Shown here piece by piece: positions 36,767 to 56,195 of a stretch of 64,000 nt of DNA. The stretch is from Nitrospira sp. CR1.2. GTDB taxonomy: Bacteria; Nitrospirota; Nitrospiria; Nitrospirales; Nitrospiraceae. Position 1 is the first letter of the stretch. Every line of letters starts with the position of its first letter. Both the position numbers and the translations under genes were made by a program. The notes beneath the pieces are model-generated. The model searched no databases. It saw nothing but the letters and a program-made list of their open reading frames with translations, and had not been told where the DNA came from. Where the stretch lies: contig WIAG01000012.1 in the NCBI GenBank assembly GCA_014055495.1, forward strand, positions 706 to 64,705. Reading direction: 5' to 3'.

Positions 36767-38581
36767 ATGGCTGATTTCCAGGACACCCTCCAATCCAAAC
36801 TCGACCATCTCCCCGACCAACCGGGTTGCTATCTCTTTCGCAACGCGAAAAAAGAGATTCTCTACGTGGGTAAAGCCGCCGTGCTGGCCGACCGCGTGCG
36901 GTCCTACTTCCAGAAAGGCAGCGAGCAGACACCCAAAACCAGCCTGCTGGTCAGCGAAATCGCCGATCTCGAAACCATTGTCACCCGCTCCGAGTTGGAG
37001 GCGCTGATTCTTGAAAGCAACCTGATCAAGCGCCACCGACCGCGCTTCAATATCGTCCTGCGCGATGACAAGCAATACCCCTATTTGCGCTTGCCGATCA
37101 AAGAAGCCTTTCCTCGACTCTCCATCGTTCGACGCGTACAAAAAGACGGGGCACTCTACTATGGCCCCTACACGCCGGCCGGAGCGCTTCGTGAAACCCT
37201 GAAAGTCATCCGCAAGGCGTTTCCACTCGCCACCTGTGACATCGAAATCGACGGCAAAGCCGATCGGGCCTGTCTCGAGTTTGAAATCAAACGCTGCATG
37301 GCCCCCTGCACCGGTAATCAGTCAAGGGACGACTACCACTTGATTGTCAAACAGGTACGTCAGTTTCTGGAGGGCCGCGACCGCGAACTGCTGGACGGCC
37401 TGCGGCAGACCATGGAAGCTGCGGCAGAACGCGAAGAATTCGAAGAGGCGGCCCGGATACGGGATCGACTGTTCAGCGTCGAGCGCACTTTGGAGAAACA
37501 ACGGATTACCCAGGTCAGCACGACCGACCAGGATGTGGTCGGACTAGCCCGCCAAGGCACCGCGGCAGATCTGCAGCTTCTCTTCGTGCGCGGCGGCTTA
37601 TTGATCGGCAGGAAAGATTTCTTCTGGCCCCAATCCGCCGACTCCAGCGATGAGGAACTCGTACGCTCCGCGATCGAACAGTTCTACAACAAGGAAGGGC
37701 AACCGCCCAAAGAACTGTTGGTGCCGACCGACCTCTCCGATGCGCCTCTGATCGAACAATGGTTGAGCGACACACGGGGCGATGCCGTTCGTCTCCTTGC
37801 TCCGGAGCGAGGCACGAAGCACCAACTGGTTTTGCTTGCGGAAGAAAACGCCGCGGCCGCCATTGCCGACCACCTCCGCAACGAGGCCCTGGACCGTCAG
37901 GCCACGGCTGAACTCAAACGCCTGCTTCGTCTCGACATCGCGCCCCGCCGCATCGAGGGCTTCGATATTTCCAACATCATGGGAAACCAGTCCGTCGCAT
38001 CGCTCGTAGTCTGGGAAGACGGGCACGCCAAGAAGGCCGACTATCGGAAATTTCGCATTCAGACGGTGGAGGGGGCCAACGATTTTGCCAGCATGCAGGA
38101 GGCCGTGACGCGGCGATACGGGACCACGGAAGAGCTCGCGAAGCCGGACCTCATCTTGATCGACGGCGGACTCGGCCAATTGAGCGCCGCCATCGAAGGC
38201 CTGAAACAGGTCGGGCAGGAGCAGATTCCGATCATCGGCCTCGCAAAGGCCCGTGGCGAGAAAGACGAGCGCATTTTTCTCCCGGGCCGAAAGAACCCGA
38301 TCCTGCTCCGCCCGACCTCTCCCGCCACTCACCTCGTGCAGCGAATCCGGGACGAAGCCCACCGGTTCGCGGTCACTTATCACCGCAATCTGCGGGGCAA
38401 AGCGCTGCTTTCTTCCGAACTCGACCAGATCGCGGGCATCGGCAAGATCCGGAGGAGGCGGCTTCTCAAGCAATTCGGCAGCCTGCAACAGGTCGCCGCG
38501 GCTACCGACGATCAGCTCAAGACCGCCGGGCTCGATCCGGCCACCATCGCCGCACTACGTACCGCCCTCACCTCCGCCTAA
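36767..38581 (+). CDS. uvrC: excinuclease ABC subunit C
   Basis: GIY-YIG N-terminus PGCYLFRNAKKEILYVGKA...LADRVRSYF, a UvrB-binding region, an endonuclease V-like domain and a C-terminal (HhH)2 IAGIGKIRRRRLLKQFGSLQQV. Confidence 0.97.
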   Translation: MADFQDTLQSKLDHLPDQPGCYLFRNAKKEILYVGKAAVLADRVRSYFQKGSEQTPKTSLLVSEIADLETIVTRSELEALILESNLIKRHRPRFNIVLRDDKQYPYLRLPIKEAFPRLSIVRRVQKDGALYYGPYTPAGALRETLKVIRKAFPLATCDIEIDGKADRACLEFEIKRCMAPCTGNQSRDDYHLIVKQVRQFLEGRDRELLDGLRQTMEAAAEREEFEEAARIRDRLFSVERTLEKQRITQVSTTDQDVVGLARQGTAADLQLLFVRGGLLIGRKDFFWPQSADSSDEELVRSAIEQFYNKEGQPPKELLVPTDLSDAPLIEQWLSDTRGDAVRLLAPERGTKHQLVLLAEENAAAAIADHLRNEALDRQATAELKRLLRLDIAPRRIEGFDISNIMGNQSVASLVVWEDGHAKKADYRKFRIQTVEGANDFASMQEAVTRRYGTTEELAKPDLILIDGGLGQLSAAIEGLKQVGQEQIPIIGLAKARGEKDERIFLPGRKNPILLRPTSPATHLVQRIRDEAHRFAVTYHRNLRGKALLSSELDQIAGIGKIRRRRLLKQFGSLQQVAAATDDQLKTAGLDPATIAALRTALTSA

Positions 38582-38810
38582 CGCATGCACGGCCCCGCTC
38601 TCTGTATACGGTTCGATACACCCGTATCCGAATGGGTACGCCGGCGAGGCTCGATCACCGATGTACCGATTTGAGGCATGCTGATTTTTCTCCTTGCACG
38701 ACCGGCGTTACATCGCTAGGCTGTGGCCTCGACGCTCCCTACGTATCAGGTACGTAGATTGCCTCTCTCGACAATAGATCCGATTTTCATGCTTACCAGG
38801 AGGCATCCCG

Positions 38811-39443
38811 ATGAGGATGTTGCCCGTCGCCGGCCTACTGACGTTCGTGTTGCTCGCCGCTTGCGCGACCCCGCCGGAAGTCAAACAGGCACTTGCCGCC
38901 AAAGATCAGGCGTATGCCGAGAACACACGGCTCATGCAGCAGTATCGTGAGCTGGTGAGTAATATCACCACACGGCACCTGCAGTGGTATCGATTCGTTC
39001 AGACGCGCCTGAAACTGAACTTGGCCCTTCAATGGGCGACCACCGATCCTCGATTGGTGGATGTCCCGGAAGCCGCCATGGCCGAAGACGATGCCGCCCA
39101 ACTCGGTCCCGACGTGCTACGGGTCATCAATCTGATCCGCCTGCAGTCTCTCCCCGAGCGCAAAGGGCAGAACGGCCAGGCCCTGTTTGTGGCCGGGACC
39201 GGGGACATGAGCAACCTTGTCCAGCAGCTGCCTGAATTAATCGCTCGGATCGAGCAGCGGGTTGCGGCCGATGCCAAAGCGCCTCAGGCCGTGGATCTGA
39301 CCGCGTTCGACCATTATCGAAACAATGTCGACGCCCTCCGCCGCATCAACGGCCTGATCAAGCAGTACCTGGATATCGACGTCACGCTCAACCAAACCGA
39401 GACGCAATCCCTGGCGGACGCGGTGCGGACGGTGCGCCGATGA
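38811..39443 (+). CDS. hypothetical alpha-helical lipoprotein (cluster gene 1)
   Basis: MRMLPVAGLLTFVLLAAC lipobox. GGAGG lies upstream. No recognisable domain. Confidence 0.6.
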   Translation: MRMLPVAGLLTFVLLAACATPPEVKQALAAKDQAYAENTRLMQQYRELVSNITTRHLQWYRFVQTRLKLNLALQWATTDPRLVDVPEAAMAEDDAAQLGPDVLRVINLIRLQSLPERKGQNGQALFVAGTGDMSNLVQQLPELIARIEQRVAADAKAPQAVDLTAFDHYRNNVDALRRINGLIKQYLDIDVTLNQTETQSLADAVRTVRR

Positions 39444-39478
39444 CATACCTCGAGACTGCTCACAGGAAGGAGTCCTCC

Positions 39479-40189
39479 ATGGTCGGCCGAGGCATGCTGC
39501 GGCTCTCCCTCGCTCTGTCGTTGCTCCTGGCGACCGGCTGCCACTCGATTCACAGCAGTTCGGTCCGGGACCTCGTTCAGGTGGAAGGTACCAAGATCGA
39601 CGCCGCGCAAACGAATATCGATCTCTTTCAGAAGGAAACCGAGGCGCGCATCAAAAACCTCGAACAGGCCCGCGCGGAACTCCACGAGGCGTTCAAGTCT
39701 CTCCACATGCAGGAAACGAAACATCGTTTTACCCTGGCGGCTTTCCGGAACCTGACGAACAGGAAGGGAGACGCCGCCTATGCGGCCGCGTACCTCACCG
39801 GCCTCATTTACATGGAAGATGTACGCGGACTTGAGAAAGCGGTCTGGGATCAATTTGAGCAAGACTTCTGCGGCCTGCGCGACACGGCCAACGCCCTCAA
39901 TGACTCGTGGAAACATACCGCCACGCTCCATGCCCAGATCCATCGCTTTGCCCAGAAATCGGCGCTGGCCTCCGTCGATCCGGAATTCGTCACGGCTATC
40001 CTCAACCAAGCGCCGAATCGGTCTGAGCAGATCATGGACGTGGTGAACCATTCCCGCACGGTGAACGACGCCTTGGAGGAGGTCGTGGGGGCGCGAATCC
40101 TGGGCATCGGAGGATTGGATCGCGCCCAACGGTACACGGCCGACCTGGTGGAATTGCTCGACCGACTCAAGCAGGATGACGGACAGTAA
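39479..40189 (+). CDS. hypothetical alpha-helical lipoprotein (cluster gene 2)
   Basis: MVGRGMLRLSLALSLLLATGC lipobox. GGAAGGAG lies 7 nt upstream of ATG 39479. An alternative ATGA-overlap start is at 39440. Confidence 0.6.
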   Translation: MVGRGMLRLSLALSLLLATGCHSIHSSSVRDLVQVEGTKIDAAQTNIDLFQKETEARIKNLEQARAELHEAFKSLHMQETKHRFTLAAFRNLTNRKGDAAYAAAYLTGLIYMEDVRGLEKAVWDQFEQDFCGLRDTANALNDSWKHTATLHAQIHRFAQKSALASVDPEFVTAILNQAPNRSEQIMDVVNHSRTVNDALEEVVGARILGIGGLDRAQRYTADLVELLDRLKQDDGQ

Positions 40190-40200
40190 CGGAGGGCGCT

Positions 40201-40722
40201 ATGAACCGCAGCTTCGAGGGAGTGGTCACCTTCCTCCGCGACAACGATAGTTTACTGAAACAGCTGATGGAGACGGCTGAGACCGCGACCCACGAGATCG
40301 GACAACTGGCTACCCGCGTCGACCAGGCGCGGGATGAGGCCCACGTGTTGATCGACCAACTCGGCACGGTGGAGTTCAGCGTCGGCCGGCAGGATGAGAC
40401 CAAGGTGAAACAAACCGCCCTCTTGGAGGCTGTCGCCGCATTACGGAAGAAGTTCGAAACCTATAAGAACGACCCGTTGCGACGCGGCATCTACGCGGCG
40501 GAAATTTCGAATCTCTACCTGCAATTGGCCAACACGTTCAACAACGACACCGTCTCTCAACTCGTCCCCTTCGCTCAGGACGAGATCGAGGGATACAAGG
40601 ACTTGATGAGAAAGGCTATCTTGGACGCCGAATCCCGGCAACGGCGCGCCGCCGTGCTCAAGGCCGGAGTTCAGATTTCGAGGATGGCACTGGGATTGGC
40701 CGGCAAATTGGCGATGGCCTAA
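40201..40722 (+). CDS. hypothetical helical protein with hydrophobic C-terminal tail (cluster gene 3)
   Basis: 173 aa with no signal peptide and coiled-coil-like composition. C-terminal ISRMALGLAGKLAMA. Tightly spaced with its neighbours. Confidence 0.5.
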   Translation: MNRSFEGVVTFLRDNDSLLKQLMETAETATHEIGQLATRVDQARDEAHVLIDQLGTVEFSVGRQDETKVKQTALLEAVAALRKKFETYKNDPLRRGIYAAEISNLYLQLANTFNNDTVSQLVPFAQDEIEGYKDLMRKAILDAESRQRRAAVLKAGVQISRMALGLAGKLAMA

Positions 40723-40742
40723 CAGAGAGCGCCCTACCCGTG

Positions 40743-41510
40743 ATGTGGAAAACGGTCGGAATCATCGTCAGCCTCTTCTGTGCCGGCTGTAGCCTCGACG
40801 CATCGTCGCGCGGCCCGTTCGGGCCTGAAGATCCGGAGACGGCCATTCCGAAACGTCCTCTGCCCGCGCAGGTCCCGCTGAGGCATGTGCTGGAATTCAC
40901 GGCCGATGAGTCTCCCGAACACGTGAAACCCACAATGGCCGGAACCATCACGGATGCCTCCGTGAGTCGATCGCCCAGCCCCGGTAGGCAGTTGTCGGCA
41001 ACCGACATTGCTTCACTGCGGAAGGCCGCTGAAGCCGACCCCCGTGTCAGCAGCCTGTTGGGCGCGCGATGGGGATTTATCGATGCGGATCCTACGCCCC
41101 CCAAGAGCAAGGTGTCGTTCGGGTGCTGTCGGGCAAGCGCACGATTCGCCAGACTCACCTACTTTAGCTATAGCCATAACGTCGCGGTCGACGTACGCAT
41201 GAAGGACGGCTCCGTCCTGGAGGCCGTTCGAGTCGAAGGGTATCTGCCGCCGGAGGGACCGCAGGATGTGGCGCGAGGCATCGAACTGGCGCGCGGCGAC
41301 CAGCGCCTCTCCGGCAAGGTGCAGGACATGCGTGGTCATGGGCTGTTGATGCAACCGGATCGCGGGTTCTTCAGAAATGATCCGGGCTATGGGCATCGCG
41401 TGATTTGGATTACCTTCTCGCAGGGTGTGGGAGGAGACCCCAAGTACTGGGCACAGGTCGACCTCACGGAGGACCGTGTCCTGGACGCGGGCGAAGAGCC
41501 GCCTCGTTAA
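40743..41510 (+). CDS. lipoprotein resembling copper amine oxidase N-terminal (N2/N3-type) domain (cluster gene 4)
   Basis: MWKTVGIIVSLFCAGC lipobox-like. ARLTYFSYSHNVAVDVRMKDGSVLEAVRVEGYLPPEGPQDVARGIELARGD...HRVIWITFS has the beta-alpha pattern I associate with CuAO N-domains. The domain call is tentative. Confidence 0.5.
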   Translation: MWKTVGIIVSLFCAGCSLDASSRGPFGPEDPETAIPKRPLPAQVPLRHVLEFTADESPEHVKPTMAGTITDASVSRSPSPGRQLSATDIASLRKAAEADPRVSSLLGARWGFIDADPTPPKSKVSFGCCRASARFARLTYFSYSHNVAVDVRMKDGSVLEAVRVEGYLPPEGPQDVARGIELARGDQRLSGKVQDMRGHGLLMQPDRGFFRNDPGYGHRVIWITFSQGVGGDPKYWAQVDLTEDRVLDAGEEPPR

Positions 41511-41617
41511 CGAGCTGTCCATGCAGGGGCGAAACCGGGCGACCGGCGAGGACACAAGGGTTGGAGCTGTCACCACTGGCCGCCCTGCGGCACCGCCGCC
41601 CGGCGAAGGGGGAAGGG

Positions 41618-42613
41618 ATGAAACAAGCGCTGATGAAAGCTGTGCTGACCGGCGCCCTGCTGTGGTGTAGCCTACTGGCGTTGCCGATTCCGAGTGCCGC
41701 CGACTCCTCCGCCGAGCATATGACGTGGGGGCGCTGGAGCTTCGACTATGAAGTCCGGGACAATACCGGCCTGGCCCTCCGGAACGTGACCTATGACGGA
41801 GAACTCGTTCTCGGCAAAGCCAGCATGCCGGTCCTGCGTGTCAAATACGTGAAAGAACGCATCTGGTGGAATCCCTTCACATGGTTTGGATCCCGCGCCG
41901 ACAGCGGCCGCTGCGGCCCCTTCCAAGATCGACTGCGCTGGCAGGATCTGGTGCCGATCGTGAATTGCGGCAACAACAAGGTCTGCGTCGAGAGCTCGAC
42001 GTTGCAGGGCACGAAATGGCTGGAACTGGGTATCTATGCCCGGATCGGGGAGTACCACATTTACCAATCCTGGCACCTCTCCGACGACGGCGAGCTCCGC
42101 CCGGTCGTCCAAAGCCGGGGGCTCTCTTGCAATACCGATCACATTCACCACCCGTACTGGCGTTTCGACTTCGACATCGACGGCAACGGAATGGACCAGG
42201 TCTTTGTGCATGACGACGGCGGTAGCGACCATGGCTGGGGTCCCGGGTGGAAGAAGTATACGAACGAGCGCAATGATGTAAAGGTAGCCGCCACCCATCG
42301 CACCTGGTTCGTTCGCGACCAGCTGACCGGCCACGGCGTCTGGCTCCTCCCGGGGAACGGGTATGCACCGCTCAAAGACGACGGGGAACGGGATGCCTTC
42401 GCCGATCACGATGTGGCCATCCGGCGCGCGGATCCCGACGAAGACCTTCCTTGGGTCTTCGGAGCACGCGGACAACTGGGATACGACGAAGACAACCAGA
42501 GCGTCCAGGAACAGGATGTCGTGGTGTGGTACGTCGCGCATCTTCCCCACATGGCCGCGCTGGGTCCGACCAAATGGCTTACCTTGGGCCCGACCTTAAA
42601 AATTCAACGCTGA
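41618..42613 (+). CDS. secreted copper amine oxidase catalytic-domain-like protein, short form, non-canonical cofactor motif (cluster gene 5)
   Basis: Signal peptide MKQALMKAVLTGALLWCSLLALPIPSAA. WGRWSFDYEVRDNTGLALRNVTYDG, IGEYHIYQSWHLSDDGEL (cf. CuAO IGNYDY..W...DG), DHIHHPYWRFDFDIDG (cf. HQH...RLD..VDG) and DVVVWYVAHLPH (cf. D.VVW...G..H). GGGGAAGGG RBS before ATG 41618. Confidence 0.7.
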   Translation: MKQALMKAVLTGALLWCSLLALPIPSAADSSAEHMTWGRWSFDYEVRDNTGLALRNVTYDGELVLGKASMPVLRVKYVKERIWWNPFTWFGSRADSGRCGPFQDRLRWQDLVPIVNCGNNKVCVESSTLQGTKWLELGIYARIGEYHIYQSWHLSDDGELRPVVQSRGLSCNTDHIHHPYWRFDFDIDGNGMDQVFVHDDGGSDHGWGPGWKKYTNERNDVKVAATHRTWFVRDQLTGHGVWLLPGNGYAPLKDDGERDAFADHDVAIRRADPDEDLPWVFGARGQLGYDEDNQSVQEQDVVVWYVAHLPHMAALGPTKWLTLGPTLKIQR

Positions 42614-42866: not shown

Positions 42867-43664
42867 ATGAATCAGCCTGGGTTATCCGCAAAGGAATTCC
42901 AACGACTCGGCGAAATTATGTACAACGCCCGCTCCGTCAATCGAAGCGACGGCGTGTGGAAACTGGTCTCAGCGATCCAACAAGTCGTTCCCTATGAATT
43001 TTCGGGATGCGGGGGAGTGGACCTTCTCCGCGGAATCGATCCCGCGCTCGGACATTCCACCTACCCGAGGGAATTCTGCCAACTCTACATGGGGCAGGGC
43101 TTGGCGGCAGATCCCGCCATCACCCGGCTGATCACGTCCGGCCACTCCGTCACCTCCAGCGCCGACGCGCCAGCCGCGTCCGAGCCGAAAGAGGTCACGT
43201 CGCTCAAACTGGATTTCGGTATCAAAACCTGCTTGTCGGCCGGTGTACGCGGAGAGCAGGGCACCTGTTCCTATTTTGCCTTCAGCAATTTCAACACGAA
43301 ACACACCGAAAAACTCCGCCTTCTGCTCGATATCCTGACCCCGCATTTCCACTTAAGTTATATGCGATGCGCGTCGACCTGGAAACCGGAGCGACCGGCG
43401 CAACCGGCCGTCCTGTTGAGCAAACGGGAAGAAGAGATTCTCCGTTGGGTCGCGGCCGGCAAGACCAATTGGGAAATTTCCGTCATCCTCAAGGTCAGTC
43501 TGAATACGGTGAAGTTTCACCTCAAGAATATTTTCCAGAAAATCGGAGTTGAAAACCGGTGGAGCGCCATCGCCTACTGGCAAACCGGTGAACAACACCG
43601 AGTCATCGCCCCCTCAGCTCCTAGTGACGATCGTCTACCTTCCGCTTCCAACAGCGCAGAATAA
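42867..43664 (+). CDS. LuxR-family transcriptional regulator with autoinducer-binding-domain-like N-terminus
   Basis: C-terminal GerE/LuxR HTH LSKREEEILRWVAAGKTNWEISVILKVSLNTVKFHLKNIFQKIGVENR. N-terminal EFCQLYMGQGLAADPAI...DFGIKTCLSAGVRGEQGTCSYFAFS resembles the AHL-receptor fold. Confidence 0.8.
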   Translation: MNQPGLSAKEFQRLGEIMYNARSVNRSDGVWKLVSAIQQVVPYEFSGCGGVDLLRGIDPALGHSTYPREFCQLYMGQGLAADPAITRLITSGHSVTSSADAPAASEPKEVTSLKLDFGIKTCLSAGVRGEQGTCSYFAFSNFNTKHTEKLRLLLDILTPHFHLSYMRCASTWKPERPAQPAVLLSKREEEILRWVAAGKTNWEISVILKVSLNTVKFHLKNIFQKIGVENRWSAIAYWQTGEQHRVIAPSAPSDDRLPSASNSAE

Positions 43665-43882
43665 GCCGTACGTCGCCCGTCGTATCGAACACCGCTTCCG
43701 TTTTCACAGGATTTGTCCGGCCCGCTCCCCCGCCTACCCCGATGGGTAGGTGACTCCGATCGACACCTCTCGTAGATTCTAGCCAGATAACAGGACGCCT
43801 TTCCCGGCGTCCCAGAACCACCGCTACTTAGATGACCGGGATAGGGCCAAATAGCCCTAGGACAACCGGAAGGAGAGGCCCT

Positions 43883-45154
43883 ATGAAGCAGCTCGCTACA
43901 CAGTCTGCAGCAATGGACGCCACATTCACTCTGCTGGACCTCCTGCAACAGCGCAAGACCCGTCGATTCGGGCGCGGCATGACGCTGCCCGGCGGCCCCC
44001 TCCAATACACGAGCCACCATGAACCGGTTCCGCTGAGCCGAGAGGAAGAGCGGTACCTCATTTATGCGGCGATCGGACGATCGGGACGGAATCTCGGCGA
44101 TATGCACTTCGTCGGGCGTCCCGGGTCGAGCGAGGGCCAGGGTAACGCGCTGATGAATTTCCGGAGCCGCACCGTTCCCAGCCCCTGCTCCGCACACACG
44201 ACGCAATTGTTCTACACCAACGACGACGGAGTGTTTTTCGTCGCCGACGCAGCCGGGCCGGACCATCCCTGGGACCTCGACATTGTCCAGCTCCGATCAT
44301 CCCGGCTGGAAATCCCCCGTGAAGTCCCCTTCATGCTGCCGTTCAACCAGTGGTATACGAATCGACCCGGCACCACGCTCTTCTTCCCCGTGACCAATAT
44401 CACGCTGCTGTATCTGAATCTGCTCCTGATGATGTTCAGCGAGGAGACGGGCTACTTCATCGTCGATACCGATAACGGCAACGCCGCCTGTGGACTGGAC
44501 GCCTTTCGCAAGAGCGCCGGTGGACACCTTCATGACGACATCCGGGCGCGCCGGATGTTCAGCTTGCGCGAACTCGACGCCGCGATTTGCGAAACCGCGA
44601 TTCAAGAACAGGGCATCATCTGCGAGCACCTCTCGCTGATGCAGCAGGCCCTGGGGCTCGGCGGCGGAATCCAAAGCGTAGGGAGCGGCCGCCACCTCCT
44701 GGGTCTGGAACCGCACATCTATCCGGGGCTGGGGTTCCACTTCGTCGTCCCGCCCGGTAAGCCGATGCGGGCCAATCCGGTCGGGATTCCAGGGGTGTGG
44801 GAAGGGCCGACCCCGCCCTTCGTCTCCTCGATGAAGGAAGCCGTGACTCAGCTGGTGGCCAGCAAATTCGGCCCCGACGGCACGTTCCGGAAACCTCATG
44901 AGCAGACTTGGGTCAAACCCGGGACGACACAACAGGTGCCCGAACATTCCACACAGGCCATCGAGGCGACCATCGCCTTTACCGAATACGTCCTGGACAC
45001 CTACGGTCGGTTCCCGGCGCACGCCGACGCCTGCAGGTCCGTCGTCGCGTGCCAAACCCATCACCTCGATGAAGATTTTTACGCGACATTCTATCCCGAC
45101 TCCGCCTTGCCGGACGCGCACCGCGAACACATGCGCACGTGGCATTCGCATTGA
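43883..45154 (+). CDS. SagB-type/nitroreductase-superfamily-like protein (function unknown)
   Basis: LLDLLQQRKTRRFGRG (cf. RRS.R.F), FRSRTVPSPCSAHTTQLFY (cf. R..PSAGG.YP.E.Y) and CEHLSLMQQALGLGGGIQSVG. GGAAGGAGAGG RBS before ATG 43883. Confidence 0.5.
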   Translation: MKQLATQSAAMDATFTLLDLLQQRKTRRFGRGMTLPGGPLQYTSHHEPVPLSREEERYLIYAAIGRSGRNLGDMHFVGRPGSSEGQGNALMNFRSRTVPSPCSAHTTQLFYTNDDGVFFVADAAGPDHPWDLDIVQLRSSRLEIPREVPFMLPFNQWYTNRPGTTLFFPVTNITLLYLNLLLMMFSEETGYFIVDTDNGNAACGLDAFRKSAGGHLHDDIRARRMFSLRELDAAICETAIQEQGIICEHLSLMQQALGLGGGIQSVGSGRHLLGLEPHIYPGLGFHFVVPPGKPMRANPVGIPGVWEGPTPPFVSSMKEAVTQLVASKFGPDGTFRKPHEQTWVKPGTTQQVPEHSTQAIEATIAFTEYVLDTYGRFPAHADACRSVVACQTHHLDEDFYATFYPDSALPDAHREHMRTWHSH

Positions 45155-45195
45155 CGACATACATTTTCACGCTCTTACGAGCAGAGGAGGGCACC

Positions 45196-46521
45196 ATGAC
45201 ACCACAGACCTCTCGTCGAGTCGTCATCACCGGTATGGGAGTGATTTCCCCGTTGGGCAGCACCGTCGACCTTTTTTGGCATCTCTTGAGTCGGGGAGAA
45301 AGCGCGGTCAAGCCGATCACGTTGTTCGATACGTCTCCCTTTCAGGCCTGCCTTGCGGCTGAGGTACGAGACTTCGATCCCGAGGACTTTTTGCATCGCA
45401 AACAGGCCCGCCGCATGGGACGCGCGACGCAGTTCGCCGTCGCCTCCGCCATGATGGCGGCGCGCGACTCCGGCCTCGACCTGGAACAGGAAGATCGCGG
45501 CGCCATCGGCATCAGCATCGGTACCTCCATCGGCGGCATGAAGGAAGCGTTCGAATTCCACGACGCCGCTCGGCTGACCGCCTACGAGCGGGTCAATCCC
45601 TTTACCATGGGCATGACCTTTCCGAATGCGATTTCCTCGGAAATCGCCATCGTCCTGGGGCTACACGGGCCCTGCGAGACGTACTCCATCGGATGCTCCT
45701 CAACGGCAAACGCCATCGGGCGGGCCTATGAATGGATCAAGTCGGGGCAATCGTCGCTGGTCGTGGCAGGCGGAACCGAAGCCCCCCTGCATCCGAGCGT
45801 CTACGCCGCCATGAACGCCGGGCGGGCCCTGGCACCGGATGAACGCGGGACGATTCGAAACCTTCCCCGCCCCTTCGACAAGACCCGATGCGGCATGGTG
45901 CTGGGCGAAGGAGCCGGCTGTTTTATCCTGGAAGACTACGAGCATGCCCGCGCCCGGGGCGCCAGGATGTACGCCGAACTTGAAGGTTGGGGGTTCACCT
46001 GCGATGCCCATTCGATGGTCAAAGCCGCAGCCACGGGACAAGAGCAGCAACGGGCCGCCCAGCTGGCGCTCTCGACAGCCCACTGGTTTCCGGAAGAGGT
46101 CGACTATGTGAACGCCTGCGGGCTCGGCACGATGGAATTGGACGCGATCGAGACCCAGACGGTGAAGCAGGTCCTGGGCGACCATGCCTATCGAGTACCG
46201 GTCAGTTCGTTCAAAGCGGCCCTCGGCCATGCCTTCGCTGCCAGCGGAGCCTTCCAACTCATCGGGACCGCCAAGGCCATGGAACACCAATTCATCCCCC
46301 CCACCCTCAATTTGACCACCCCGGATCCGAGCTGCGATCTGGACTATGTCTCAGGAAGCGGGCGCGCGGCGCACCTGAATCGCGCGCTGATCAACAGCTT
46401 TGGGTTCGGGGGGAAAAATATCGTCCTGGCGCTGTCACGCGTGAACGTCGGCATAGGCGAGACCCGGTCGACAAGAGCCACGCCGGGATACAGCATGCCC
46501 CAGCTGGCAGGAGTGTCGTGA
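45196..46521 (+). CDS. beta-ketoacyl-ACP synthase II-like condensing enzyme (stand-alone)
   Basis: RRVVITGMGVISPLG. Active-site Cys in YSIGCSSTANA (TGC 45694-45696), His in CDAHSM and KAALGHAFAASG, C-terminal NSFGFGGKN. GAGGAGG RBS. Confidence 0.85.
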   Translation: MTPQTSRRVVITGMGVISPLGSTVDLFWHLLSRGESAVKPITLFDTSPFQACLAAEVRDFDPEDFLHRKQARRMGRATQFAVASAMMAARDSGLDLEQEDRGAIGISIGTSIGGMKEAFEFHDAARLTAYERVNPFTMGMTFPNAISSEIAIVLGLHGPCETYSIGCSSTANAIGRAYEWIKSGQSSLVVAGGTEAPLHPSVYAAMNAGRALAPDERGTIRNLPRPFDKTRCGMVLGEGAGCFILEDYEHARARGARMYAELEGWGFTCDAHSMVKAAATGQEQQRAAQLALSTAHWFPEEVDYVNACGLGTMELDAIETQTVKQVLGDHAYRVPVSSFKAALGHAFAASGAFQLIGTAKAMEHQFIPPTLNLTTPDPSCDLDYVSGSGRAAHLNRALINSFGFGGKNIVLALSRVNVGIGETRSTRATPGYSMPQLAGVS

Positions 46522-46746: not shown

Positions 46747-47421
46747 ATGAGCAGAGAGTCGAACATGAACGAACTAGAGCACACCCCCACCAGGGTGTTT
46801 GTCATCAACCCGCAGGAACTGGTCAGGGTCGGCATGCGGACCCTCCTGAATTCCGTCCCCGACTTTCGCATTGTCGGCGAAGCGCCTTCGGGAACCGAAG
46901 CGCTCCCGCTGTTGCTTCAACACAAACCGGACATCGTCATCGTGGATCTCCGCGTGCAGGACGGCACGGGCATCGAGACCGCCAAGGAAATCTTGTCTCA
47001 TTTGCCGGCCACACGCCTCCTGTTTCTCGCCGACACCCTGAACGACACCATCCTCCTGTCCGCCGTCTCCACCGGCGCCCACGGGTATGTGCTGCAAGAC
47101 GCCGGCGCAGAAACACTGATACTCGCGTTGCGCAGCATCACCAAAGGACAGGCCTACCTCGATCCGGGCGTCACCCGTCACACCTTCGCCTATCTCCGTA
47201 AAGTGGCGGATCGAGAACCCGAACGGGGCCGGCATCTGTTATCACCCCAGGAACGACGCTTGCTCCCCCTCATCGCGCAGGGCAAGACGAACAAGGAAAT
47301 CGCAGCCGAACTGGGATTGAGCGATAAGACCGTCAAGAACTATCTCGCGAATGTCTATTCCAAACTGCATCTCACCAGGAGGTCTCAAGCCGCCGCGTTT
47401 TACCTCAAGACAATTCCTTAA
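46747..47421 (+). CDS. NarL/FixJ-type regulator with atypical (degenerate) receiver domain
   Basis: C-terminal LuxR HTH LSPQERRLLPLIAQGKTNKEIAAELGLSDKTVKNYLANVYSKL. The receiver keeps the acceptor Asp (IVIVDLRVQDGTG) but has NP for the acidic pair (VFVINPQE), A for the T/S (LLFLAD) and Q for the Lys (GYVLQD). Confidence 0.8.
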   Translation: MSRESNMNELEHTPTRVFVINPQELVRVGMRTLLNSVPDFRIVGEAPSGTEALPLLLQHKPDIVIVDLRVQDGTGIETAKEILSHLPATRLLFLADTLNDTILLSAVSTGAHGYVLQDAGAETLILALRSITKGQAYLDPGVTRHTFAYLRKVADREPERGRHLLSPQERRLLPLIAQGKTNKEIAAELGLSDKTVKNYLANVYSKLHLTRRSQAAAFYLKTIP

Positions 47422-47432
47422 GAAGAGGCGCG

Positions 47433-50400
47433 TTGCCGCCGCGATGGCCGCAGGCTCAAGTTCCCCCGTCGGGAGTCCGACAGAGTACCGACACGCTCTG
47501 TCGCCCCCTCGGAATCAGCTCGAGCATGTACCATCTGCGATCCTTTCATCTCCGGCACATGACCGCCTGCGGAGCAGTGCTGCGTCGGCTGGGTACCGGG
47601 ACAAACAGCATCCAGGAGGTCGCCCACCGTCTCGTTCGCCACCTCTACACCTCCTTCACCATGGATCAGACCGGAGAGCCGGCCTGCGCCCTGGTTCGCC
47701 TGTTCAAGACGACACCGTACGGCCTCCTGACGCCGGATCTGCAAACGCTGGCCGACCAGAAGCTCCAACCACAACAGCCGAGCCCGTCCCTCCCGTGTCT
47801 GACCTTGCTTGCCAGCGCAGGCCTGCATCCCGGATGGAACGATCCCACCTTGTCCAGTCGCTTCCGTGTGCTCCCGCTGAACGGACCGGAGGCACTTGAA
47901 CGCCTGCCGATGTTCCATCAGCTGTTCAACCAGCTGGGATTCACGCTGCCTCACGCCTCCACCTCGAATGAGAACGTCCTGCTGGACCCGGGCGAGCACG
48001 GCTTCAACGTGTTCCATATCCCGGAGGCGCCCGGGAGTCCGCACGTCCCGGCGCAGGAGGAATTCGTCCGCAAGTACGGCATCCGGTCGGTGCTGGGCTT
48101 CGGTGCCCCGTTGCCGAACGAAGACCTGTTCTCCATCATACTGTTCAGCAGGGATTATATTTCGGAAGAAACCGCAGAGTTGTTCAAGCCGCTAGCTCTT
48201 TGCGCGCAGATCGCGCTCGCCCCTCATGCGAAGCCGACTGTCGGATCACGACAGGCCGCCGTCTCGCCACGGTCGGAGTCCGCCGACCTTGAACGATTGC
48301 TCGCCGTGCACGAACAGAGCGTGAAGGCACAAGCCGACCGGCTCGAACTGATCGTACAGGGCTCGCAGGTCGGCACCTGGGATTGGCACGTGCCCAGCGG
48401 GCGCGTCACGTTCAACGAACGCTGGGCCGCGATGCTCGGGTATCGACTCGACGAACTTGAACCCCATGTGCGCACATGGGAGCAGCTCGTGCACCCCGAC
48501 GATCTGCCCACAGTCATGGCGGCAGTCAGAGCTCATCTCCGTGGAGAGACATCCGCCTACTCCAGCGAACACCGCCTGCGCTCGAAGTCAGGCGCCTGGC
48601 TCTGGGTCTTCGACAGCGGCCAGGTCGTGGAGCGGGATGCCCAGGGAGGGCCCCTGCGCGCTACGGGCCTGCACCTGGACATCTCCGACCGGAAGGAGTT
48701 GGAAGCGGAGCAGGCACTCGCACAACGCGCCCTTGAGGCGAAACAGGCCGCGCTGGATGAAGCCCAGACACTCGCACACCTGGGATCGTGGGAATGGGAG
48801 ATCGCCAGCGGCGCGGAGCGATGGTCCGATGAACAATACCGCATTTTCGGCCACGATCCGGCGCACACCCAGCCGACCTATACGACATTCCTGACGGCAC
48901 TCCACCCCGACGATCGAGAGCGGGTGGAGCAGGCCGTCGCCAAGACCCTCAACTACGATACCCGTTACAACGTCGAGTGCCGAATCATACGGCCGAACGG
49001 AGAACTGCGTCATATCCACTGCCGCGGAATCGTCCATCGGCAGGCCGACGGCACACCGGTCGGCATGGCCGGAACCGTGCAGGACATCACCGAATACAAA
49101 CGCGCCGAATCCGCCTGGCGGGACAGCGAAACCCGCATGCGCTCCATCTTCGAAAGCGCCATCGAGGGGATCCTCGTGATCGACGAACGGGGACGAATCG
49201 AAACCGCCAACCCCGCGTTATTGAAACTGCTGGGCTACGAGGCGCATGAATTCATCGGAAAGAATATTTCCCTGATCATGCCGTCGCCCTACCGCGAGCA
49301 CCACAACGAATACCTCGCGAACTATCTGGTGACCGGGAAACGGGCGATCATCGGACAGGGCCGCGATGTGCCGGCTGTGCGGAAAGACGGCAGCCACATC
49401 GACATCCATGTATCCGTCAGCGAGATGCAGACCGGCGGCTCGAAGAAATATACGGGCATGATCCGCGACATCTCCGAGCGGAAACGCATGGAAGCAGCCG
49501 TCCGGGAGAGTGAAGAGCGCTTCCGCCAACTGGCCGAATCGATCGATGCGGTGTTCTGGCTCACCACTCCGGACAAGCAGCAGCTGCTCTACGTCAGCCC
49601 CGCCTTCGAGGCGATCTGGGAAGTTCCCCGGACCTCGCTCTACGCAAATCCTCAGTTGTGGCTCGACCACATTCACCCGGAGGACCACAAGCGGGTGTCC
49701 GTCGCAGCGGCCTGTCAGGCGCACCTGCCCTATGACGAAGAATACCGGATCGTCACGCCGAGCGGGCGGGTCCGGTGGATCAGGGATCGCAGTTTCACCA
49801 TTTGCGACGCCCAGGGAGAAACCTACCGCATCGCCGGCATTGCCCAGGACATCACGGGGGCAAAGGAACTGGAAGCTCAACTGCGGGCCAGCGAGCAGCG
49901 GCACCGGGCCCTGGTGGAGTTGTCCCCGCACGCGATCTACGTCAATTGCGACGATCGCATCGTGTTCGCCAACCAGGCCTGCGTCAAACTATTCGGCGCC
50001 ATCGCCCCTTCGCAACTGTTCGGGAAACCGGTCATGGACTTCATCCATCCGGACTCTCACAAGACCGCGCGGGAACGCATCGCCTGCCTACAGGCCACCT
50101 GTGGATCGGCCCCCCCCATCGAAGAAAAGTTTCTGGCGCTGGACGGTAGGATTCTCGAGGTGGAGGTCGCAGCCGCCTCCATTCGATTCGAAGGCAAGCA
50201 GGCGATCCAAGTCATTTTGACCGACATCCGGGCTCGCAAGCAGTTGGAGCGAACCTTACTGGCTACGAACGTGCAGCTCGAAGCCATTCTGGCCAGCGCC
50301 ACCAATATCTCCATCATCGCCACCGATCGTGTCGGCATCATCACCACTTTCAACAGCGGGGCGGCAGCGATGCTGGGCTATGCCGAGACGGAGATGGTCG

Positions 50401-52310
50401 GTCGACAGGCGCTTACGGCACTCCACCTGCGGGAAGAACTCGATCACTTAGCCGGCGAACTGCATCGCGAGGCGGTGACGCAGACCCAGGCGTTCGAGGT
50501 GCTGACCGAACGGGCTCGACGAGGCGGATTCGACGAACGCGAGTGGACCTACACGCGAAAAGACGGTGGGCGGCTGACCGTTCTCGTCACCATTACCGGC
50601 CTCCGGGACGATCACGGGCACTTGACCGGATATCTCGCCATCGGGAAGGACATCACGGAGCGGAAGCGAATAGAAATTGCGCTCAGAGAGGCGCGCGATG
50701 CGGCCCTGCAAACAGCCCAGCTCAAAGCCGACTTCCTCGCGACCATGAGCCATGAAATCCGCACGCCGATGAACGCGATCATCGGCATGACCGGATTGCT
50801 CCTCGATACCGCGCTCACGGAGGAACAGCATGATTTTGCCGATACCGTGCGCCGGTCCAGCGATGCCTTGCTGACGATCGTCAACGACATCCTCGACTTC
50901 TCGAAAATCGAGGCCGGCAGGCTCCAGTTCGAAGAGTTGGCCTTCAATATCCGCCTGGCCGTCGAAGACACCATGGAGTTGCTGGCAGAAGCCGCGCAGA
51001 GCAAGGGATTGGAACTGATCGCCCTGGTCGACGCGTCGGTTCCGACCGGGGTCCTGGGAGACCCCGGTCGACTCCGGCAAATCCTGGTCAATCTCGTCAG
51101 CAATGCCGTCAAATTTACTTCCACAGGCGAGGTCTTTCTGCACCTCACCTGCGATCCCCAGGCAGGACCGCATATGTTGCGGTTTACCATCACCGACACA
51201 GGAATCGGTATCGCACAGGAGGCGCAGGCAAAACTGTTCCAGGCCTTCGTGCAAGCCGACAGTTCCACCACGCGCCGGTTCGGCGGCACGGGGTTGGGCC
51301 TCGCCATTTGTCAGCGCCTGGTCACCCAAATGAAAGGGCAGGTCGGTGTCGAGAGTCGCCCGGGGGAAGGCAGCACCTTCTGGTTCACCGCGCACTTCCC
51401 CGAGACCGCCCTTGCCGACCCGCCTGCGGGTGTTTCCTGGAGTCACCTTCGCGGTCGGCGTATCCTGCTGGTGGACCCGAATAAGACCGTCCGCAAGGCA
51501 CTGCAGCAAGAACTCTCCGCGCAAGGCATCGAGTGCCTCGGCGCCGAGACCGGCCAGGCAGCCGTGGAACTGGCGCAGACCGCCGCCGCCATGCAGAAAC
51601 CCTTCGACTTGGCCCTGATCGAGCTGCACCTCACCGATATGGACGGGTTCGACACGGCAACCGCGCTCAAACAGGATCCCCGCACCGCGGGCATGCGATT
51701 GGTTATCCTCACCACGGTCGGACGGCGGGGCGACGGCAGCACCGCCCAGGCGCTCGGCATCGACGCCTATCTCACGAAGCCCATCCGGCAGTCACAGTTG
51801 TTGGACTGTTTCTGCCGATTGCTGGGCGTGCCCCTTCCGGCCTCGCCTACGGAGAACTCCGCCGCACATCCCTTGATCACGCGGCACACCCTGACTGAGA
51901 CCCACGTGGCCGCTGCGCCTCGCCTGCTTCTCGCCGAGGACAATCCCGTGAATCAAAAGGTGGCATGCAAAATGTTGGAAAAGCTGGGCTACCGCGTCGA
52001 CGTGGCCGGCAACGGCCAGGAAGCCGTGGCCGCCCACGAACGCGCTCCCTACCCGCTGATCTTCATGGACTGCCAAATGCCGGAAGTGGATGGATTTGAA
52101 GCCACGGCCCTGATCCGCAAGATGGAGGGGAAGTCGGCCCACACGCCCATTATCGCCATGACCGCCAATGCCATGCAGGGGGACCGTGAACGGTGCTTGG
52201 CCGCCGGGATGGACGACTATGTCGCCAAACCGGTCCGTCCGAAAGAACTGCAAGCGGTGCTGGAGACCTGGCTCGGAAATCGCGCAACCAGAACCGGCAC
52301 GACGGGGTAA
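47433..52310 (+). CDS. soluble hybrid sensor histidine kinase: unknown N-domain, ~6 PAS/PAC (one FixL-type heme-PAS), HisKA-HATPase, two receivers
   Basis: H-box FLATMSHEIRTPMNAI, N/G boxes NLVSNAVKFT and GGTGLGLAICQRLV, receivers ...LIELHLTDMDG and ...IFMDCQMPEVDG. Heme-PAS NISLIMPSPYREHHNEYLANYLVTGKRAIIGQGRDVPAVRKDGS. The start is uncertain (TTG 47433 or ATG 47526). Confidence 0.9.
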   Translation: MPPRWPQAQVPPSGVRQSTDTLCRPLGISSSMYHLRSFHLRHMTACGAVLRRLGTGTNSIQEVAHRLVRHLYTSFTMDQTGEPACALVRLFKTTPYGLLTPDLQTLADQKLQPQQPSPSLPCLTLLASAGLHPGWNDPTLSSRFRVLPLNGPEALERLPMFHQLFNQLGFTLPHASTSNENVLLDPGEHGFNVFHIPEAPGSPHVPAQEEFVRKYGIRSVLGFGAPLPNEDLFSIILFSRDYISEETAELFKPLALCAQIALAPHAKPTVGSRQAAVSPRSESADLERLLAVHEQSVKAQADRLELIVQGSQVGTWDWHVPSGRVTFNERWAAMLGYRLDELEPHVRTWEQLVHPDDLPTVMAAVRAHLRGETSAYSSEHRLRSKSGAWLWVFDSGQVVERDAQGGPLRATGLHLDISDRKELEAEQALAQRALEAKQAALDEAQTLAHLGSWEWEIASGAERWSDEQYRIFGHDPAHTQPTYTTFLTALHPDDRERVEQAVAKTLNYDTRYNVECRIIRPNGELRHIHCRGIVHRQADGTPVGMAGTVQDITEYKRAESAWRDSETRMRSIFESAIEGILVIDERGRIETANPALLKLLGYEAHEFIGKNISLIMPSPYREHHNEYLANYLVTGKRAIIGQGRDVPAVRKDGSHIDIHVSVSEMQTGGSKKYTGMIRDISERKRMEAAVRESEERFRQLAESIDAVFWLTTPDKQQLLYVSPAFEAIWEVPRTSLYANPQLWLDHIHPEDHKRVSVAAACQAHLPYDEEYRIVTPSGRVRWIRDRSFTICDAQGETYRIAGIAQDITGAKELEAQLRASEQRHRALVELSPHAIYVNCDDRIVFANQACVKLFGAIAPSQLFGKPVMDFIHPDSHKTARERIACLQATCGSAPPIEEKFLALDGRILEVEVAAASIRFEGKQAIQVILTDIRARKQLERTLLATNVQLEAILASATNISIIATDRVGIITTFNSGAAAMLGYAETEMVGRQALTALHLREELDHLAGELHREAVTQTQAFEVLTERARRGGFDEREWTYTRKDGGRLTVLVTITGLRDDHGHLTGYLAIGKDITERKRIEIALREARDAALQTAQLKADFLATMSHEIRTPMNAIIGMTGLLLDTALTEEQHDFADTVRRSSDALLTIVNDILDFSKIEAGRLQFEELAFNIRLAVEDTMELLAEAAQSKGLELIALVDASVPTGVLGDPGRLRQILVNLVSNAVKFTSTGEVFLHLTCDPQAGPHMLRFTITDTGIGIAQEAQAKLFQAFVQADSSTTRRFGGTGLGLAICQRLVTQMKGQVGVESRPGEGSTFWFTAHFPETALADPPAGVSWSHLRGRRILLVDPNKTVRKALQQELSAQGIECLGAETGQAAVELAQTAAAMQKPFDLALIELHLTDMDGFDTATALKQDPRTAGMRLVILTTVGRRGDGSTAQALGIDAYLTKPIRQSQLLDCFCRLLGVPLPASPTENSAAHPLITRHTLTETHVAAAPRLLLAEDNPVNQKVACKMLEKLGYRVDVAGNGQEAVAAHERAPYPLIFMDCQMPEVDGFEATALIRKMEGKSAHTPIIAMTANAMQGDRERCLAAGMDDYVAKPVRPKELQAVLETWLGNRATRTGTTG

Positions 52311-52326
52311 CGAAGGAACACACGCC

Positions 52327-55841: not shown

Positions 55842-56195
55842 CCCTTCCGCAGCCGGCGAGACGCGTCTCTCAACTAGGGCTGGTCCCGGCGGCGCGACGG
55901 CGTCGTCCTCACGCCTCCAGACCTCCCGTCCAGGCGTGTAGCCTGTACCGCGTATCGATTGAGATACGCGCTGTATCACATCCGATAAGTGCCCTCCCAT
56001 ATCTCACTACGCATTCGCTCGTAACCCCACACCGAATCATTCGGAAACCGCGCCTCCCTCGTGACCTCGGCGACTCCGACAGGCCTTGAACCTCAGGGCA
56101 TGTGCCTTGCCTTTTCTTTCCGTACGATCGCTTACTCGAAACCGTTCTCGTGCAGTCCACCATCGGACCAGTCTGTCGAGTATCCTGGAGTCCCT

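Follow-up and report, generated by a model that had tools for sequence, protein, structure and literature searches.

The five genes that follow uvrC in the analysed window, a 64,000-nt stretch of the Nitrospira sp. CR1.2 genome, are best explained as two separately conserved modules lying fixed side by side in Nitrospiraceae, the second being homologous to copper amine oxidases (CuAOs) but divided into two proteins at the boundary of the D3 and D4 domains; we place moderate confidence in this explanation. Module A, made up of genes 1–3 (G1–G3), would be an autonomous envelope-associated trio of two helical lipoproteins and one signal-less helical protein, probably co-transcribed with the oxidase pair in Nitrospiraceae. 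Module B, G4 plus G5, would correspond to a CuAO cut between D3 and D4, in which the putative lipoprotein G4 has D2/D3-like domains behind a long flexible tether, and G5, exported by the Sec route, would supply a shortened D4 beta-sandwich that retains the cofactor tyrosine and three copper histidines. The two proteins may join non-covalently in the periplasm to yield a membrane-tethered copper/quinone oxidase, which could act on free primary amines or on lysine residues of proteins, turning the amine into an aldehyde with release of ammonia and H2O2. A periplasmic H2O2 producer would be awkward if N. defluvii lacks catalase, as has been reported. Each module is also found alone in other bacteria, which argues against one dedicated five-part machine.

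Gene order and translation signals

The locus is arranged as follows:

38582..38810, + strand: leader of 229 nt separating uvrC from G1; Shine-Dalgarno motif CAGGAGG at 38797-38803
38811..39443, + strand: G1, 210-aa helical lipoprotein of an orphan family, lipobox LLAAC
39479..40189, + strand: G2, ~236-aa helical lipoprotein of an orphan family, lipobox LATGC
40201..40722, + strand: G3, 173-aa helical protein of a small orphan family, without signal peptide
40740..41510, + strand: G4, 256-aa lipoprotein, lipobox CAGC, CuAO D2/D3-like fold predicted
41511..41617, + strand: spacer of 107 nt separating G4 from G5; its 3' end is G-rich and Shine-Dalgarno-like (GGGGGAAGGG)
41618..42613, + strand: G5, 331-aa Sec-exported protein, putative minimal CuAO D4 domain, Pfam PF01179

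Downstream of the uvrC end at 38581, the ORFs confirm the five co-directional genes of the initial annotation, with spacings of 35 (or -4), 11, 17 and 107 nt. The two values for the first spacing arise because the G2 ORF is open from 39440, and its likely start is the ATG at 39479, which has AGGAAGGAG 7 nt upstream. In the mechanical ORF list, G5 begins at TTG 41405 and overlaps G4; we place its start at ATG 41618, since its homologues are 324-331 aa long and the G-rich Shine-Dalgarno-like stretch precedes this codon. Shine-Dalgarno sites are present upstream of G1 (CAGGAGG), G2 and G3 (GGAGG), and, together with the tight spacing, are consistent with co-transcription of all five genes. The lipoboxes assigned earlier to G1, G2 and G4 (VLLAAC, LLLATGC and LFCAGC, respectively) hold up in the sequence and in homologues, where the cysteine is invariant or nearly so, as does the Sec-type signal of G5, which ends in PSAA, before DS.

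The leader does measure 229 nt, but the AT-richness ascribed to it is mild, with a GC content of about 0.56 (38600-38999) vs 0.59-0.65 in the surroundings. No Rfam family was found in the leader or in the 107-nt spacer. The leader region contains no promoter-like site on the + strand and one on the - strand, and shuffled sequence yields as much; overall, the search for terminators and promoters returned nothing favouring or opposing a joint five-gene operon.

The oxidase-like pair

By sequence, G5 is a homologue of the CuAO catalytic (D4) domain. It matches Pfam PF01179 with 36.4 bits (gathering score 27), a profile of 42 G5 sequences matches the Arthrobacter globiformis enzyme (AGAO) at 2.4e-10, and hhalign scores 91.8 % with E. 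coli TynA in a 272-column alignment that places G5 residues 33-307 on TynA 351-722. Profile and hhalign agree in putting Y146 where AGAO and TynA have their topaquinone (TPQ) tyrosine, the profile-AGAO alignment around it reading IGeYhlyqaWYlsedG vs IGNYDYGFYWYLYLDG. In the hhalign alignment, H175-x-H177 falls on the H-x-H copper ligands of TynA; the third copper histidine is matched by H311 when the profile is compared with AGAO. Among the 42 homologues, which extend down to 36 % identity, Y146, H175, H178, H308, H311, C99 and C171 are invariant, and H177 is conserved in at least 90 %, as is D104, which lies within a C-G-P-[FY]-x-D motif; the region of the catalytic-base aspartate is not reliably aligned to TynA by hhalign, and D104 is a candidate for this role by position only. 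Copper binding and a quinone cofactor may be inferred for G5 from these residues.

G5 also departs from the CuAO pattern in several ways. The N-Y-(D/E) consensus is not kept: it reads E-Y-H in the window, homologues have A, S, Q, N or E before the cofactor tyrosine and H, K, R or D after it, and the tyrosine alone is invariant. Beyond the CuAO set, C99, C171, H178 and H308 are invariant, and so is a GWGPGW motif, which is present throughout the 42 aligned homologues and missing from a related Variovorax protein. Compared with TynA D4, the domain also lacks some 100 residues. With altered residues at the tyrosine and additional invariant Cys and His, G5 may have a modified active site or accept a different range of substrates.

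The relationship of G4 to CuAOs emerges at the level of the predicted fold, as no Pfam model, including PF02727 and PF02728, matched G4 or 25 of its homologues. In the AF2 model (mean pLDDT 67), residues ~15-81 form a low-confidence tether of about 65 residues, and tandem alpha/beta domains that share the fold of CuAO D2/D3 occupy residues ~82-256, with pLDDT of 70-89 over most of this part and dips at ~126-131 and 201-220. In a Foldseek search of the PDB with this model, ranks 1-25, all with E <= 0.001, were without exception CuAOs, with E-values from 6.6e-6 (best) to 7e-4 and low TM-scores (~0.3). The C-terminus of G4 has a weak local match to the end of TynA D3 in the correct register. Judged from the model, G4 is thus equivalent by fold to the D2/D3 N-terminal domains of a CuAO. 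PepSY-type domains follow at ranks 26-28 with weaker matches. Assignment of G4 to PepSY (PF03413) was rejected, as neither G4 nor its 25 homologues match the family in sequence; one distant G4-like protein stays below threshold, with 17.9 bits where 24 are required. The initial annotation had proposed genes 4 and 5 as the N-terminal and catalytic parts of a CuAO, a proposal now backed by Pfam, the AGAO profile, hhalign with TynA and Foldseek.

The pair is tightly linked. A G4 gene lies directly upstream of the G5 homologue in all 75 loci with upstream sequence, and all distant contexts that we examined contain the pair too, its genes often overlapping by 4 nt; each split locus that we examined encodes D2/D3 and D4 separately. 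In a 529-aa Variovorax protein, a G5-like domain forms the C-terminal part and is preceded by about 235 aa. Pairs without G1–G3 occur in Bacillus, Variovorax, Nonomuraea, Microvirga and metagenomic contigs, and one Nitrospirota MAG combines a full five-gene block (L032) with a second G4-G5 copy that has no trio (L080). Neighbours of the pair in other genomes include a tyrosinase, a galactose-oxidase-like protein and an animal haem peroxidase.

The pair could also be read as something other than an amine oxidase, with G5 representing a diverged CuAO fold that serves other copper chemistry or another cofactor (e.g., a Cys-linked quinone or a quinone-free copper centre) or acts as a non-catalytic binder, and with G4 as a subunit of tandem PepSY-like domains that regulates or inhibits it. 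Such a reading draws on the replaced consensus around a lone retained tyrosine, the additional invariant residues and GWGPGW motif, the catalytic base that does not align to TynA, the shortened D4, the PepSY-type Foldseek matches together with the sub-threshold PepSY hit, and the oxidative enzymes found as neighbours. However, retention of the tyrosine and the copper histidines across the 42 homologues argues for a working copper/tyrosine-derived site, and as structural matches of G4, CuAO D2/D3 domains have E-values two to three orders of magnitude lower than other folds. We regard this reading as rather unlikely.

The helical trio and its linkage to the pair

In sequence terms, G1, G2 and G3 are three mutually unrelated orphan helical families. 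The earlier statement that they have no recognisable domain was borne out: none of the three has a match in Pfam, NCBIfam or the PDB, and the AF2 model of G1, mostly helical and weak (pLDDT 61), found no match in Foldseek. G1 has the conserved motifs C-[AT]-T-P-P-E-V-K-Q-A-L and Y-L-D-I-D-V-T, and the lipobox G-C of G2 is invariant in 15 of 15 diverse homologues. G3, for which no homologue has a signal peptide, belongs to a small family (78 clusters at 50 % identity match at E <= 0.001, among 1.84 billion proteins). It had been described as helical with a hydrophobic tail; the helical character stands, but the C-terminal 22 residues form a moderately hydrophobic, amphipathic helix (maximum 19-residue Kyte-Doolittle mean 1.0-1.56, helical hydrophobic moment 0.39), below the level of a clear transmembrane segment. 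Like the alanine-zipper lipoproteins Lpp/OprI (NF040598), G1 is a small helical lipoprotein, and its signal peptide and N-terminus give a sub-threshold match to this family (E 0.078); at 13.5 bits against a cut-off of 43, this falls far short of membership, and G1 differs from Lpp/OprI in being 210 aa long with conserved motifs of its own.

All five genes are present in 61 of the 64 Nitrospira-type loci, i.e., related loci with at least 3 kb of upstream DNA, and flanking genes recur in at most 31 of 80 loci, so that the arrangement is not due to chance. The block is kept down to 31 % identity in G3, and the gene set is syntenic in many genomes. Loci L095-L099, in one Tepidisphaeraceae (Planctomycetota) genome and other metagenomic contigs, contain the trio without G4-G5, with HMM E-values of 1e-25 to 1e-75 in L095-L098 and with L099 counted by gene order and sizes alone.

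These distributions bear on two further readings. According to one, the five genes constitute a single dedicated system in which G1–G3 are obligate partners, e.g., a helical lipoprotein scaffold or maturation factors, that hold or activate G4-G5 at the membrane. The near-constant presence of all five genes, the conservation of the block at 31-45 % identity as a unit that moves while its flanks change, and the gap of 17 nt between G3 and G4 agree with this, as does the analogous make-up of L084 and L085, in which G4-G5 lie beside three non-homologous lipoproteins (two helical, one a zincin-like peptidase) and a small helical protein whose C-tail is hydrophobic. The pair and the trio each occur alone elsewhere, however, so that the dedicated partnership proposed in the initial annotation is not established, and we consider it doubtful. 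A role of the trio in cofactor maturation, suggested at the same time, is unlikely, because TPQ formation in known CuAOs is self-catalytic, needing only copper and O2, and G1–G3 have no conserved His, Met or Cys suggestive of copper handling; haem and radical-SAM motifs are likewise absent from them.

At the other extreme, the modules could be functionally unrelated, their adjacency being a gene order inherited beside uvrC and the five-gene "operon" having no joint function. The independence of each module elsewhere is in keeping with this, as is the layout dapF-uvrC-G1..G5 of distant Nitrospiraceae, which we read as ancestral; the terminator and promoter evidence favours neither side. Yet the five genes still stay together in many loci of lineage-II type that have lost uvrC and luxR as flanks, an inversion of G4-G5 in L065-L067 left the modules adjacent, and the intergenic gaps of 11-35 nt on a common strand fit co-transcription. 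We see unrelated function as a serious but lesser possibility. For the two linked modules that we favour, the trio may act as scaffold, regulator or target of the oxidase, as their linkage hints; since the modules occur independently, any functional connection between them rests on linkage within one family.

Relation to known amine oxidases and significance

CuAOs are single-chain homodimeric enzymes that make their quinone cofactor themselves. Comparison with AGAO and TynA/ECAO shows a homologous D4 beta-sandwich in G5, with the cofactor tyrosine and H-x-H...H ligands conserved, and a D2/D3-like fold in the G4 model; TynA is periplasmic, and G4 and G5 are likewise predicted to be exported. 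In contrast to CuAOs, in which D2, D3 and D4 lie on one polypeptide, the Nitrospira proteins have D2-D3 and D4 on two, and G4 is lipid-anchored via its probably disordered tether and escapes the Pfam N2/N3 models. G5 further differs in the variable E-Y-H in place of N-Y-D/E, the shorter D4, and the extra invariant C99, C171, H178, H308 and GWGPGW. Overall, G4-G5 is a variant of the known CuAO kind, situated beside a novel helical module; we found no description of a two-gene CuAO version with a changed cofactor motif in the searchable literature.

The likeness to lysyl oxidase (LOX), a secreted amine oxidiser with copper and a tyrosine-derived quinone (lysine tyrosylquinone), is conceptual only, a protein-lysine substrate being one possible role of G4-G5 beside the co-encoded envelope proteins. 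Identity with LOX was rejected, since none of G1–G5 matches PF01186 (Pfam, E <= 1), and its fold and cofactor lysine are not evident in the Nitrospira proteins. Periplasmic amine oxidation is also carried out by methylamine dehydrogenase and quinohaemoprotein amine dehydrogenase, which are encoded in multi-gene clusters with accessory genes and whose cofactors, TTQ and CTQ, require dedicated maturation enzymes (MauG and a radical-SAM protein). Their folds and cofactors are unrelated to G4-G5, and their maturation enzymes are absent from the window.

A bolder proposal, which we rate as improbable, is that G4-G5 represents a widespread heteromeric class of copper/quinone oxidases, with cofactor surroundings unlike those of TPQ enzymes (the Cys99/Cys171 pair, the extra His and the loss of N-Y-D/E), and that the Nitrospira enzyme, held in the periplasm by its tether, would either modify lysines of the trio, in a lysyl-oxidase-like cross-linking of the envelope, or free ammonia from organic amines as a nitrogen supply. 

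The two-gene CuAO with its changed cofactor motif, spread over Nitrospirota, Bacillus, Variovorax, Nonomuraea and Microvirga, constitutes a natural experiment on the N-terminal domains and the N-Y-D/E motif, and the trio families, being common to Nitrospiraceae and Planctomycetota, provide a defined target for envelope biology. Nitrospira is a key nitrite oxidiser in which "reciprocal feeding" by urea and cyanate is known, and periplasmic amine oxidation would, speculatively, extend it by a route from organic amines to ammonia.

Gene layout and flanks

The source genome is Nitrospira defluvii-like: the best related locus belongs to an N. defluvii MAG (95% identity in G5), and the related-locus search gave 86% identity for the reference N. 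defluvii chromosome. The five co-directional genes under study, G1 to G5, and their flanks are placed as follows.

uvrC, 36767-38581: upstream flank of the five-gene block
G1, 38811-39443 (+): open reading frame
G2, 39479-40189 (+): start at ATG 39479, with AGGAAGGAG just 5' of it; frame open from 39440
G3, 40201-40722 (+): open reading frame
G4, 40740-41510 (+): open reading frame
G5, 41618-42613 (+): start placed here, rather than at TTG 41405, from the lengths of homologues and from a G-rich Shine-Dalgarno-like stretch
LuxR-type gene, 42867-43664 (+): downstream flank of the block

These coordinates bear out both the 229-nt leader and the spacings (35, 11, 17 and 107 nt) read in the initial annotation; the leader is indeed AT-richer, but only mildly so. 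No Rfam family matched the leader or the spacers, and a promoter and terminator scan performed no better than on shuffled sequences. Homologues keep the lipobox cysteines of G1, G2 and G4 as well as the Sec signal of G5. The signal peptide is absent from G3 in all homologues, and of its supposed hydrophobic tail there remains an amphipathic C-terminal helix of only moderate hydrophobicity.

Directly downstream of G5, the LuxR-type regulator combines an autoinducer-binding domain (PF03472) with GerE. It is followed by a gene for a 440-aa protein without a Pfam or NCBIfam match (43832-45154, +), which is overlapped by the start of a beta-ketoacyl synthase gene (45139-46521, +). A quorum-sensing or small-molecule locus is one possible reading of this segment, the first two genes of which co-occur in related loci retaining the uvrC flank. 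Beyond it lie a NarL-type response regulator (46747-47421, +) and a pair of hybrid PAS histidine kinases, both very large (1625 and 1007 aa; 47433-52310 and 52168-55191, both +). L100, a distant Nitrospiraceae contig, has a dCache/PAS hybrid kinase directly 3' of its G5 homologue, and therefore the segment from the LuxR-type gene to the synthase may have been inserted in the N. defluvii lineage. Farther downstream, 56061-60221 (+) encodes a 1386-aa protein with a patatin-like phospholipase domain, the C-terminal part of which gave a sub-threshold match to GNAT acetyltransferase (26.6 bits, cut-off 27).

G4 and G5 as probable parts of a copper amine oxidase

The proposal that G4 corresponds to the N-terminal part of a copper amine oxidase (CuAO) and G5 to its catalytic part is supported by Pfam, profile and hhalign results for G5 and by fold matches for G4. 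At the sequence level, G5 has conserved copper ligands and the conserved tyrosine. It scored 36.4 bits for the Pfam CuAO enzyme domain, above the gathering score of 27, and a profile of 42 homologues matched the Arthrobacter amine oxidase at 2.4e-10, aligning Y146, invariant among homologues, with the topaquinone (TPQ) tyrosine and H311 with the third copper histidine. In hhalign, residues 33-307 pair with 351-722 of E. coli TynA, and H175-x-H177 sits at the H-x-H ligands. Unlike canonical CuAOs, however, the G5 family has a domain about 100 residues shorter, tyrosine neighbours other than N and D/E, and no catalytic base alignable to TynA by hhalign, while it possesses additional invariant residues (C99, C171, H178 and H308) and a GWGPGW motif invariant across the 42 aligned homologues.

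For G4, neither Pfam (run on G4 and 25 homologues) nor sequence and profile searches of PDB produced a meaningful match. In its AlphaFold model, some 65 residues of low confidence precede two helix-plus-sheet domains, and in a Foldseek search of PDB all 25 matches at E <= 0.001 (best 6.6e-6) were CuAOs, aligned over about 200 columns, with PepSY-type domains appearing at weaker scores only. The modelled fold is consistent with a tandem of the N-terminal CuAO domains D2 and D3; since the G4 profile gave only a local match of 2% probability to the TynA sequence, this assignment rests on the fold search. Part of the G4 tether modelled with low confidence (residues ~23-53, window ~40806-40898) carries conserved linear motifs, S-R-G-P-F-G-P-x-D-P-E-T ... 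K-x-x-L-P, of which pair-only homologues retain the E-T...K..L-P portion. This suggests that the peptide may serve for docking and not simply as a spacer.

Linkage and separate occurrence of the pair and the trio

All five genes are found together in 61 of the 64 Nitrospira-type loci having at least 3 kb upstream, so that the set is syntenic in other genomes; the full blocks include a distant Nitrospiraceae contig with a dapF-uvrC-G1..G5 layout and 31% identity in G3. Flanking genes are kept in at most 31 of 80 loci, versus 67-80 of 80 for the five genes, uvrC and luxR being gone from many loci, and in three loci (L065-L067) G4-G5 is inverted and still adjoins G3. Linkage within Nitrospiraceae suits a functional link, but would also agree with gene order inherited within one family. 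A single dedicated five-gene system, as originally envisaged, is not established, because the G4-G5 pair without the G1-G3 trio, and the trio without the pair, both occur.

G4 and G5 together form an autonomous unit. In 75/75 loci with room for it, G4 lies directly 5' of G5, and distant relatives with 35-55% identity to G5 always have a G4-like gene (152-290 aa) directly upstream, often with a 4-nt overlap, in surroundings that have nothing else in common. The family extends to Bacillus, Variovorax, Nonomuraea and Microvirga replicons, and one Nitrospirota MAG has both a full block (L032) and a second copy with the pair only (L080). Among the distant relatives, the group with about 290 aa is devoid of an N-terminal signal peptide. 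In Variovorax, a 529-aa protein whose gene adjoins a galactose-oxidase-like gene ends in a G5-like domain; this protein may be a fused G4-G5 form, the match of its N-terminal part to G4 being not significant. Two longer G5 homologues (P0102 and P0106) are not such fusions, as their extensions are C-terminal.

Genes for further oxidative enzymes are frequently located close to pair-only loci, encoding an animal-haem-peroxidase-like protein, a tyrosinase, a galactose-oxidase-like protein and a di-haem cytochrome c peroxidase/MauG-family protein (L078 7259-9037, -; L083 5356-6882, +; L101 6344-8149, +; L086 2112-3170, -). In L081 (667-6876, +), a signal-less pair with a single-domain, 152-aa G4-like protein is located inside a soluble di-iron monooxygenase cluster (two Phenol_Hydrox subunits, MmoB and a Fer2 reductase, then an FAD monooxygenase). 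Two further contexts from this subgroup do not show the association. In L084 (8148-11020, -) and L085 (2409-5281, -), the pair and uvrC adjoin proteins similar in type to G1-G3: three lipoproteins, of which the first bears a zincin HEFGH motif, the second is HEAT-like and the third is helical (315 aa), and a signal-less helical protein (108-114 aa) whose C-terminal tail is hydrophobic. None of them is homologous to G1-G3.

The trio recurs in the same order without any G4 or G5, and is thus a module in its own right. Such loci, located via distant G3-family members, comprise a 50% GC contig (L095/L096), a 70% GC contig (L097) and a Tepidisphaeraceae (Planctomycetota) genome (L099), the last recognised from gene order and sizes only; another 70% GC contig (L098) has G2-like and G3-like genes at its end. 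Trio HMM E-values for L095-L098 ranged from 1e-25 to 1e-75. The G3 family is small, with 78 clusters among 1.84 billion representatives in an exhaustive HMMER search. G1-G3 are uncharacterised families: as initially noted, they have no recognisable domain, nor any relative in Pfam, NCBIfam or PDB. Pfam and NCBIfam searches with G1-G4 and with divergent homologues yielded sub-threshold noise only, and PDB sequence and profile searches with G1 and G3 gave nothing meaningful. The predicted structure of G1 is of low confidence (pLDDT 61), and its Foldseek matches were meaningless. The three are not mutual paralogues (hhalign probabilities below 4%).

Proposed function

We infer a G4-G5 complex, and with it the identity of its cofactor, substrate and products: most likely, the two proteins would combine in the periplasm to give a lipid-tethered oxidase with copper and a tyrosine-derived quinone, acting on an amine. 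As an envelope-associated helical module, the trio may in Nitrospira serve as scaffold, regulator or substrate of the oxidase. The cofactor-maturation role also suggested for it is unlikely, because TPQ formation in known CuAOs is self-catalytic and G1-G3 have no conserved metal-binding residues. Neither a split or minimal CuAO nor the helical families of G1-G3 turned up in the searchable literature. We regard the G4-G5 pair as a variant of the known CuAO enzymes.
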